From Escherichia coli O157:H7 (lineage in GTDB: Bacteria > Pseudomonadota > Gammaproteobacteria > Enterobacterales > Enterobacteriaceae): a stretch of 64,000 bases of DNA. The stretch is from assembly GCF_013167455.1 (NCBI RefSeq), contig NZ_CP038328.1; one strand, written 5' to 3'. The notes beneath the pieces were generated by a model, which was not told where the DNA came from, did not search any database, and saw nothing but the letters and a program-made list of their open reading frames with translations. This document shows positions 43,544-46,652 of the stretch, in pieces. Each line of letters starts with the position of its first letter. Position 1 is the first letter of the stretch. Position numbers and translations under genes: made by a program.

Positions 43544-45556
43544 TTAAGAGGCCAGCGTACCTTGCGGTGGTGCTTGCTCAAGTTGCGAAAGCGAGCAGTA
43601 CAGCCGCCAGACAATTGCCGCCAGCTCACGGGCGGCAGGTTGATGATGGCGGGCAAGGCTGTCGCAAATCCGCTGTAATTCTTCAAGTGTGGCCGCCAGT
43701 GATTTTTGCTGAACGCCACGCTCACTCATCACTCCCCGCAACAGTGAAATACAGTTATCCCGTACTCGCGATAACGGATCGGAACGCGATTCCCAGTCGC
43801 GTAATTGCCAGACAACATGAGAACAGTTCAGCAGCACTATACCCCAGCGTAATAACCAACGGCGAGCCAGCGCATCCTGGCTGTTACTCAACTGACTGAC
43901 GTGATGATAAGTGAGCGATTCAAATTCGCTTTCACTCAGTGTTGGATGGCGGCTTAGTTGATCGACAAAATCCCGGCGCAGCGCGCGAATATGGCGGCGG
44001 CTTTTGCGAGCATCCGATCCTGGACGCAGAATGGCGAACGCTAACCACGCCAACGCGACGCCAACGATTTTTGCCAGATTATCGTTAAGAAAATCAGCAA
44101 AATTATACACCGGGGGATTAGTGACGGCGATAAAAGAACCCATAAAAACAATCAGTTGCCCCCACAATGCGGCAAATTTGGGCATCTGCAATTTAAGAAG
44201 CTGCATTGTCGCCAGCAGTGGAAAGAGAAACAGTAAAAATTGCCACAGATCGCTAATCTGGACCATCAGACCAAATTTGACCACAAAGCTGAATAGCGAA
44301 AGTAACACCAGCGTGCGCATCAGCAGTGACAACGACTTAAACGGTGCTGCGACGGCGGAGTAGAGTACGCAGCTAATCGCTGCCAGCGTTAATGCATTGG
44401 CACCGGCATCCCATTGCGAAGCAATACTCCATGCGCCAATCATCATCAACGTACAAAATGTACGCAGTCCGCTCCACATAGCTTCGGCGTTATCGGTATG
44501 ACGAGCCAGGCCGGATGTCCGTGGGAGTCTGGCATGATCATCTACATCGCTTTGCAGACGATGTAATTCCTGACTACTTTGCAGATAAAGGCGGCAAAAA
44601 TAACGTAGTCGCTGCCAGAAGGCGACGTGCCGATAGTCGGCGACGTTGGTCGGGCGTAGCGGGGCGATAATACGTGCGACGGTGTAAACATCTGTTTGCG
44701 AACTGGCGAGCGCCGTCAGCAACTGTTCGAGAATTTCTCGCGTGGCACCTGGCGGTGAGGGCCAGTTGAGCAACATACGTCGCAGGCTGGAGATGACACT
44801 GGTCATACGTAATTGCTGGTGGAGCAGCGCATTAAGGCGCGCGTTTTGCTGGCGAAAACGATAGTGGCTCCAGAAAGCCTGGATACGCAGCAAATTCATG
44901 GTCAGTATCTGCCCAATCACCCCTTCATGTGCTGCACGAATGGCATCGGTTGTTTCAGGCTGCCAGAGTAAACTGGCATGTTCCAGTAATCGGGCGTGCA
45001 TGTTTTTCAATGCGGTTAAAAGGGCTGTAGCATCGGAACTGCTAGGCAGGATCATCATCATCATGCCGCCGCACAAAATACCGACAATCACCTCGCAAAC
45101 GCGCGCCTGAGCGATATCCCACAGCTGGCTGGCCTCAGTAATATTAACCATCGGAAAGGCGATGATGGCAGCCGTGTAGCCCGCCAGTTGAAATGCATAC
45201 GCGACGTTATTCGTGAAGTGCGCACAGGCCCAGGTACAAAAGCCAAGCCACGCCGACATGCTCAATAGAAAAAACCACGGCTCATTGAGCGTATGCCCGG
45301 CAAGAAGCAGTGCCGCAATGGCTCCCAGTAAACTGCCAGCGATGCGTCCGAGGCTTTTGCTGATGACACCGCCAACGGTGGGAAAGCTAACCACTGCAGC
45401 CGAGGTCATCGCCCAATAGGGTTCATCCAGATTCAAATAATAGGCAACCGTCAGCGCCAGACACATGGCAATGGTATTGCGTAACGCATAACGCCATTGC
45501 GCCAGCGTGGCCCTGAACCAGGGCAAATTGCGCAAGGACCATGACGATGCGTTCAT
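43544..45556 (-). CDS. ydhK: FUSC-family (AaeB-like) inner membrane efflux protein YdhK
   Basis: 670 aa; two hydrophobic halves; operon with ydhJ/ydhI. Confidence 0.8.
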
Positions 45557-46413
45557 TATTGACCTACGGCAATGCTACAGGTGGTGCCCGACACCAGCGT
45601 GACATCGCCTGGAACTTTATCCAGCGCAAAGCGGACGGGAACGCGTTGGGCGAGACGAACCCAGGGGACGTTAGGTTTCACATCCGGAATAAGGCTTGAG
45701 TCACTTTCAACGCTCTGATCATAAATCGCCCGACCGATACTGGAAACGTGACCCTGTAACGTTTTGTTATCACTATAGAGGGTAATTTGTGCTGGTGCAC
45801 CTTCGCGGATATGGCGCAACTTGGTTTCTTCAAAATAACCAATGACGTAAAACGAGTGGCTGTCGACAAGGGCAAACAGCGGTTTCCCGGTGTCAGCGTA
45901 ATCGCCGATGCGGGTAGTGAGATTAGTCACCCATCCACTCACCGGGGCGCGAATTTCCGTTTGCGCCAGTTGCCATTGTGTCTGTTTCAGCGTCGCCTGT
46001 GCGGCATCAACACTGGCCTGCATCGCTTTAACATTGAGGTTAGCGGTATCGAGTTCTTCGGCAGAAATAAAATTTTGTGAGAGATGACGACGACGATTCG
46101 CTTCGTTATTGGCTTTTGCGAGGTCAGATTGCGCTTTCGCCAGCTGAGCCTGTGCATTCAGCTCGGCGATCTGAAAGGGCGTTTTATCGATCGTGAGCAG
46201 AAGATCCCCCGCGTTAACCAGCTGGTTGTCTTTTATATTCAGCTCAACAATACGTCCCGACACCTGTGGGGTGATAGAAACCTGTTCTGCGCGTATTTTC
46301 CCGTCGCGTGTCCACGGAGATTGCATGTAATAATTCCACAGCCACCATCCGGCAAGAACCGCAACTACCGCTACAATGATTGTTGAGAAATACTTAATTG
46401 TTTTAATTGACAT
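45556..46413 (-). CDS. ydhJ: Membrane fusion protein (HlyD/AaeA-like) YdhJ, 285 aa
   Basis: Start at [18 protein letters not shown]-terminal TM then coiled-coil; 1-nt overlap with ydhK. Confidence 0.8.
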
Positions 46414-46415
46414 AG

Positions 46416-46652
46416 TTACCACGCAATCAGTATTGCCAGAGCAAGGCAAACGCAAATCGCAAACAGCGATAAATCCATTAACAAGGGATGCCAGATGTCA
46501 CCGGCGTAGATCCAGCCACGAAGCAGGCGGTGTACGACAAGCCAGATGACGAATCCAAACGCGAAGGCTTTGAAAAACGGAGGAAAGTAGACGGACGCAC
46601 CGAACACCAGATCTTGTAAGGGCAATCCTGTTGCATTGAGCATAAACTTCAC
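46416..46652 (-). CDS. ydhI: DUF1656 small membrane protein YdhI
   Basis: 78 aa; two TM segments; first gene of ydhIJK. Confidence 0.75.

Follow-up and report, generated by a model that had tools for sequence, protein, structure and literature searches.

What do three closely packed genes divergent from the regulator gene slyA do in Escherichia coli, and what switches them on? The question is raised by ydhI, ydhJ and ydhK in a 64,000-nucleotide stretch of the E. coli O157:H7 chromosome (contig NZ_CP038328.1, assembly GCF_013167455.1), hereafter the window. We read ydhIJK, with a probability of roughly 85%, as an enterobacterial paralogue of aaeXAB that serves the efflux of aromatic or other organic carboxylate anions and stands under local control by SlyA, with additional switch-on by σE. 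All three genes lie on the (-) strand. The first, ydhI, is located at 46416-46652 and encodes a DUF1656 small membrane protein of 78 aa with two predicted transmembrane segments, from a GTG start with an AGGA 9 nt upstream. It is followed by ydhJ at 45556-46413 (RefSeq start), for a membrane fusion protein (MFP, or periplasmic adaptor) of 285 aa with one N-terminal membrane anchor, and by ydhK at 43544-45556, present in the list of open reading frames (ORFs) and annotated in RefSeq as "FUSC family protein", for a 670 aa inner-membrane protein of the FUSC/ArAE family with a predicted internally duplicated, ALMT-like fold. The first-pass annotation of this DNA had given the same coordinates, which agree exactly with the ORF list and with what RefSeq annotates on an O157 chromosome of 100% identity. 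RefSeq and Pfam also bear out the three family assignments that it had made, and RefSeq the divergent transcription of slyA and ydhIJK. Over 43000-47500 several O157 genomes match the window with 100% identity, as befits an O157:H7-type E. coli chromosome.

Each of the three products belongs clearly to its family. YdhI matches the Pfam DUF1656 model with 53.9 bits (cut-off 26.5, E-value 1.8e-14), has hydrophobic segments at about residues 21-44 and 58-76, and is encoded directly upstream of the MFP-FUSC pair; it is a DUF1656 small membrane protein. YdhJ harbors the HlyD_D23, HlyD_3 and Biotin_lipoyl_2 domains, scores 133.1 bits against TIGR01730 RND_mfp (cut-off 94.9) and has a single hydrophobic segment at residues 8-26, while its orthologues bear the Beta-barrel_AAEA (PF25963) and HH_AAEA_pHBA (PF25878) domains. 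It is a periplasmic adaptor with lipoyl, barrel-sandwich and β-barrel domains behind an N-terminal anchor. YdhK covers positions 1-658 of the 660 of the Pfam FUSC model (PF04632) with 468 bits (cut-off 30.9, E-value 6.6e-140) and, with this full-length match and its internal duplication, is a member of the FUSC/ArAE family (TC 2.A.85).

The closest known system is AaeXAB (yhcRQP) of E. coli. Pairwise comparison with the K-12 proteins, which the first-pass annotation had proposed as a check of its aaeXAB analogy, gave real similarity for all three: 33% identity over 51 aa between YdhI and AaeX (E-value 1e-5), 40% between YdhJ and AaeA (E-value 2e-67) and 24% between YdhK and AaeB (E-value 2e-28). 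The Pfam architectures of AaeX, AaeA and AaeB are identical to those of YdhI, YdhJ and YdhK, and both operons share the order DUF1656-MFP-FUSC, tight packing and a divergent regulator gene, and have no outer-membrane factor gene. Among the NCBIfam models, those of the equivalogs AaeX, AaeA and AaeB score best, yet all scores are far under the cut-offs (21.4 vs 82, 241.3 vs 400 and 122.5 vs 870, respectively), and YdhIJK are therefore paralogues and not orthologues of AaeXAB. A further claim, that junctions of 1-3 nt mirror those of aaeXAB, holds as far as gene order and compactness go, but the junctions themselves differ: read off the sequence, ydhI and ydhJ are separated by a 2-nt gap (TAA ct ATG) and ydhJ and ydhK overlap by 1 nt (TAATG), whereas the gaps in aaeXAB are 7 and 5 nt. 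The two systems also differ in their regulators, a LysR-type activator (AaeR) for aaeXAB and a MarR-type repressor released by ligand (SlyA) for ydhIJK, in the additional σE control of ydhIJK, and in their phenotypes, which are efflux of p-hydroxybenzoic acid (pHBA) and p-coumarate for AaeXAB and fusaric acid resistance in Salmonella for ydhIJK. MdtNOP and the fusaric acid resistance clusters of FusABCDE type likewise combine an MFP with a FUSC inner-membrane protein, and YdhJ matches the MdtN model (E-value 8e-60); these operons encode their own outer-membrane factor (MdtP; PMC8277102), while ydhIJK does not. The homology to AaeAB, and the fact that the physiological substrate is unknown, are stated explicitly in PMC12506092. 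Additionally, DUF1656 genes are co-fit with the neighbouring MFP and FUSC genes in transposon fitness data (bioRxiv 072470).

Concerning the inner-membrane component, an alignment of 94 diverse full-length FUSC relatives of YdhK was the basis for the profile, the conservation analysis and the structural model. The AlphaFold2 model (pLDDT 92.4, pTM 0.90) was compared with the PDB by Foldseek, and the top nine matches were all to ALMT1 or ALMT9 with a probability of 1.00, the next ones reaching at most 0.23. The 94-protein profile found ALMT9, ALMT12 and ALMT1 in the PDB with E-values of 1.5e-7 to 1.6e-5; a profile was needed for detection, as the single-sequence search of YdhK gave ALMT12 with an E-value of only 0.42. 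The copy of the PDB that was searched contained no solved structure of a FUSC protein or of an MFP-coupled FUSC system. The N and C halves of YdhK are related by hhalign (probability 95.7%, E-value 8.6e-9), which indicates an internal duplication in agreement with the helix pattern of the model, although plain BLASTP of one half against the other found nothing significant. In the profile alignment K67 and R71 of YdhK correspond to K76 and R80 of AtALMT1, and R152 to R165. R152 never varies among the 94 proteins and R71 is kept in at least 90% of them, and the C-terminal repeat has no aligned arginine. AtALMT1 R80 and R165 are presumably the malate-coordinating pore arginines of the ALMTs, and the helix positions in the alignment fit this assumption. 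With a structural match over the whole repeat and conserved arginines in the third and sixth transmembrane helices (TM3 and TM6), YdhK is predicted to have the fold of an ALMT-like anion channel. Since the halves are homologous and the arginine is kept in the N-terminal repeat alone, the model is best read as a fused, asymmetric pseudo-dimer of an ALMT-type anion conduit. The plant ALMT/QUAC channels and mycobacterial Rv2571c are homodimers of half-size subunits, whereas YdhK is a single chain of two diverged repeats, and sequence identity is only 14-16%; the plant ALMTs also work with neither a periplasmic adaptor nor a DUF1656 protein. Rv2571c, a half-size FUSC protein, has been described as an ALMT-like anion channel exporting α-ketoglutarate (bioRxiv 2026.03.10.710584).

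The control region of the operon lies between the divergent genes slyA and ydhI. The regulator gene, slyA, is located at 46853-47287 on the (+) strand and encodes a 144 aa MarR-family protein (RefSeq; Pfam MarR, E-value 1.9e-16) from a TTG start. Its AAGGAG Shine-Dalgarno sequence at 46841-46846 directly abuts an ATG at 46847 and lies 6 nt from the TTG at 46853. With the TTG and not the ATG as start, the spacer extends over 46653-46852 and measures 200 bp, as Curran et al. (PMC5797941) give for E. coli K-12; the first-pass annotation had assumed the ATG and ended the spacer at 46846. The region is AT-rich, with a G+C content of 31.5% vs 50.7% for the whole window. A motif search proposed by the same annotation found a perfect SlyA consensus box, TTAGCAAGCTAA, at 46825-46836 on the (+) strand, 4 nt upstream of the slyA Shine-Dalgarno sequence. 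It is the sole perfect match in the window, where a simple estimate for a 12-mer, with both strands counted, would be about 0.008. The loci of Salmonella type, of Citrobacter and of Enterobacter carry the identical box, which is thus shared by four genera with E. coli included. A script scan added two putative SlyA-like sites with 9 of 12 matches each, TTAGCAATACAA at 46779-46790 (+) and TTATTAATCTAA at 46686-46697 (-), the latter 34-45 nt upstream of the ydhI start. The two transcription units are thus arranged divergently, with a predicted operator of the regulator in the spacer that they share. In an alignment of the four genera the slyA-proximal ~93 bp (46760-46852) are nearly invariant and the ydhI-proximal ~107 bp have diverged, a pattern that agrees with PMC6401476.

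The regulatory coupling that the first-pass annotation had only suggested turns out to be published. SlyA of E. coli K-12 binds the 200-bp spacer in electrophoretic mobility shift assays (PMC5797941). Salmonella SlyA represses ydhI ~19-fold and slyA ~5-fold in vitro, and 2 mM salicylate lowers the 19-fold repression of ydhI to 3.2-fold (PMC6401476). In Klebsiella pneumoniae, loss of the SlyA orthologue KvrA raises YdhJ by 45-fold to >100-fold (bioRxiv 845925). In fusaric acid, ΔydhIJK Salmonella is more sensitive (slower growth) and ΔslyA grows better (PMC6401476).

Taken together, a working scheme for the system can be proposed. YdhK would form the inner-membrane conduit, its two fused FUSC repeats, each of six transmembrane helices and a cytoplasmic helical bundle, imitating the ALMT homodimer, and with R71 (TM3) and R152 (TM6) of the N-terminal repeat standing where AtALMT1 has R80 and R165, taken as malate-binding pore arginines. 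YdhJ, anchored by its single N-terminal helix, would link YdhK as periplasmic adaptor to an outer-membrane channel, and YdhI may act as a two-helix accessory subunit. No outer-membrane factor gene is annotated within ~3-7 kb on either side of ydhIJK, nor in the orthologous loci, and ydhIJK is not a self-contained tripartite efflux operon with such a gene of its own; TolC is therefore the likely partner. SlyA would occupy the 200-bp spacer until aromatic carboxylates such as salicylate release it and de-repress the pump. For this reading our analysis contributes the genes present, their homology and synteny, the predicted fold with its conserved arginines and the sequence of the operator; published work shows that SlyA binds and represses, that σE induces the operon and that fusaric acid reveals a phenotype. 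What we infer from these is a mechanism by conduction of anions and not by proton antiport, the source of energy, the partnership with TolC and the natural substrate.

Several observations weigh against the scheme. On the structural side, the Foldseek E-values are marginal (~1e-3) and the TM-scores to a single ALMT protomer are 0.45-0.55, the model cannot distinguish a channel from a coupled carrier, and TCDB places YdhK among secondary carriers (2.A.85). Concerning its partners, AaeX is largely dispensable for p-coumarate efflux (PMC9301823), which leaves the role of YdhI unclear, and AaeAB is itself written "AaeAB-?" for its outer-membrane partner (PMC8277102). The literature contains no transport assay of YdhIJK in E. 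coli, and an untargeted metabolomics study lists ydhK as uncharacterised. Over-production of SlyA in E. coli K-12 raised ydhIJK 2.2-fold, with no repression (PMC5797941), so that the sign of control in E. coli is unsettled. In the Salmonella-type locus a 9/12 SlyA site (L003:2794-2805) precedes ydhI by 108 nt and probably corresponds to the operator near the ydhI -35 of Will et al. (PMC6401476); its E. coli equivalent has diverged. Finally, a scan of the spacer with the σE consensus (GGAACTT-N16-TCAAA) gave no convincing promoter; the best candidate, CGCAGTT-N16-TCTAA (46713..46686), has 4/7 and 5/5 matches, with a weak -35, and overlaps the TTATTAATCTAA site. As a separate observation, the difference in the sign of SlyA control, up in E. 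coli K-12 vs strong repression in Salmonella and Klebsiella, coincides with the divergence of the ydhI-proximal spacer (46653-46852 vs L003:2702-2901).

The involvement of σE, which the first-pass annotation had missed, is published and opens a different reading, namely that the main role of ydhIJK belongs to envelope-stress physiology and that σE deploys the operon to remove or move a compound made in outer-membrane stress. The operon is a member of the σE regulon, and its RNA stays ~20-fold up after σE induction (PMC7075262). It is also among the σE-regulon genes induced in death triggered by restriction-modification, where over-expressed ydhK lowers viability (PMC2685091), and YdhJ protein has been reported to rise 3.5-fold with vanillin. 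However, initiation at PydhIJK rises weakly with σE, and the increase in RNA has been attributed partly to stabilisation (PMC7075262); a quintuple mutant including ΔydhJ and ΔydhK had an unchanged death phenotype (PMC2685091), toxicity of an over-produced membrane protein is non-specific, and the spacer offered no good σE consensus. In Rhodius 2005, ydhI goes unmentioned in the main text. We hold a primary role in envelope stress to be unlikely. More improbable still is that ydhIJK is in E. coli a relic, poorly expressed and essentially cryptic, while its regulator now serves counter-silencing instead, and that Yersinia pestis, Y. pseudotuberculosis and further lineages have lost the operon. 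This reading could account for the repeated loss of ydhIJK in Enterobacterales and the low expression of slyA from the E. coli promoter (PMC6401476), for the mere 2.2-fold response in K-12 (PMC5797941) and for the fact that the literature knows no E. coli phenotype. Against it, 5425 of the 5426 complete E. coli genomes contain the ydhIJK region, with a median of one copy per genome, and the locus is full-length in 5409 to 5425 of the 5426. K-12 and O157 differ in ydhK by 22 nucleotides and 4 amino acids and in ydhJ by 9 nucleotides and 1 amino acid, a strong bias to synonymous substitutions that argues for purifying selection, and their YdhI and SlyA proteins are identical. The frames of ydhIJK are intact, whereas ydhF close by has become a pseudogene in this strain, and the YdhJ protein is reported to be both detectable and inducible.

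A refinement of the efflux reading, which does not contradict it, comes close to an even chance in our estimation: the phenotype with fusaric acid, a xenobiotic, would be incidental, and YdhIJK would act as a "metabolic relief valve" for an endogenous aromatic carboxylate, possibly the metabolite that SlyA senses. A similar role has been proposed for AaeAB (PMC8277102, PMC9301823), and both the export of α-ketoglutarate by the FUSC relative Rv2571c and the conservation of R71 and R152, aligned with R80 and R165 of ALMT1, are consistent with it. On the other hand, the literature, PMC12506092 among the sources, names no endogenous substrate, and ydhIJK is not linked to slyA beyond the close enteric cluster (PMC6401476). 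More speculative, and in our view rather doubtful, is the step further that YdhK, together with AaeB and MdtO, is a single-chain asymmetric ALMT-type anion channel or uniporter that is not proton-coupled, with YdhJ and YdhI extending the pore across the periplasm and the membrane potential driving the venting of an endogenous aromatic carboxylate that SlyA would also have as its natural ligand. Both the fold and the conserved arginines are compatible with such a channel reading.

Beyond E. coli, the operon can be followed through the relatives of the locus. The orthologous slyA-ydhIJK of Salmonella Typhimurium and kvrA-ydhIJK of Klebsiella share with E. coli the synteny slyB-slyA<>ydhIJK-sodC-ydhF-ydhL, with YdhK proteins ~80-85% identical to that of E. 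coli, and in the Salmonella-type contig, Citrobacter, Enterobacter and Klebsiella oxytoca the divergent slyA and the DUF1656-MFP-FUSC genes are likewise followed by sodC, ydhF and ydhL. The MarR gene and the three-gene module are both kept in a relative with a 62% identical YdhK, whereas a relative at 50% identity has the module without the MarR gene. At 28% identity, MFP and FUSC genes are still preceded by an uncalled 66-aa DUF1656 ORF with the motifs YFPPF and WHP. This makes the three-gene module ancient and its link with slyA a feature of close enterics only, in agreement with Will et al. (PMC6401476). An exhaustive search with YdhK returned 3053 relatives at E-value <= 1e-3, and of the 150 representatives with the highest scores just three that are full-length exceed the general FUSC background of 25-33% identity.

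The comparison of loci also brought up some features peculiar to single lineages. One K. oxytoca genome has a DDE transposase gene (PF01609, 307 aa) within the slyA-ydhI spacer (L006:1760-2683), which may uncouple ydhIJK from its regulator. Two proteins, P0002 (845 aa) and P0048 (900 aa, Salmonella enterica), carry MFP and FUSC domains in a single chain; they probably reflect either a stop codon lost where ydhJ and ydhK overlap or assembly errors. A gene for a MASE4-GGDEF diguanylate cyclase flanks slyA on the side opposite to ydhI in Enterobacter (L005:875-2236), where it lies between slyB and slyA, and in K. oxytoca (L006:1-1138); E. coli, the Salmonella-type locus and Citrobacter do not have it.

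Regarding the remaining details of the locus, the order of genes in RefSeq is sodC(+), ydhK(-), ydhJ(-), ydhI(-), slyA(+), slyB(-). A longer ydhJ from a TTG at 46455, which would overlap ydhI by 40 nt, was rejected in favour of the RefSeq ATG at 46413, because the alignment with AaeA starts at residue 6 of the 285-aa form. The convergent sodC and ydhK stand back-to-back at 43543/43544 in E. coli with zero bases between them, and overlap elsewhere by 25 nt (Salmonella-type locus, L003:6016-6040), 22 nt (Enterobacter) and 8 nt (K. oxytoca), so that there is no room for an intergenic terminator. A scan of 43300-47000 for σ70 promoters and terminators gave 2 promoter-like and 4 terminator-like sites where shuffled sequences lead one to expect 4.2 of each, and is thus no evidence for either. 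A TTGCTA-17-TAGAAT site overlapping the SlyA box was discarded, as it could not be reconciled with the Salmonella transcription start in PMC6401476. No Rfam family was matched in 42900-47900. Further along, the aldo/keto reductase gene ydhF, at 42045-42941 on the (+) strand, has an in-frame TGA at 42831-42833 (codon 263), where K-12 has Ser, and RefSeq flags it as a pseudogene ("internal stop") in an identical O157 strain.

Published work already describes the ydhIJK operon together with its kinship to AaeAB, the divergent SlyA control, the phenotype in fusaric acid and the induction by σE, and none of these is new here. The checks that the first-pass annotation had proposed are covered by the literature or by our analysis, with the outcome that was expected. 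What our analysis adds in support is the perfect SlyA consensus at 46825-46836, a confident YdhK model that over the full repeat matches only plant ALMT channels, and the conserved R71 and R152. The questions that remain, namely what is naturally exported, whether SlyA represses or activates in E. coli, where the σE promoter lies and how an adaptor-coupled ALMT-like exporter is built, concern properties of the family and are not discoveries made in the window. Resolving the natural substrate, the outer-membrane partner and the cooperation of conduit, adaptor and DUF1656 protein would clarify the FUSC/ArAE class of Gram-negative exporters, and the natural substrate might also reveal the metabolite that is sensed by virulence regulators of the SlyA family.

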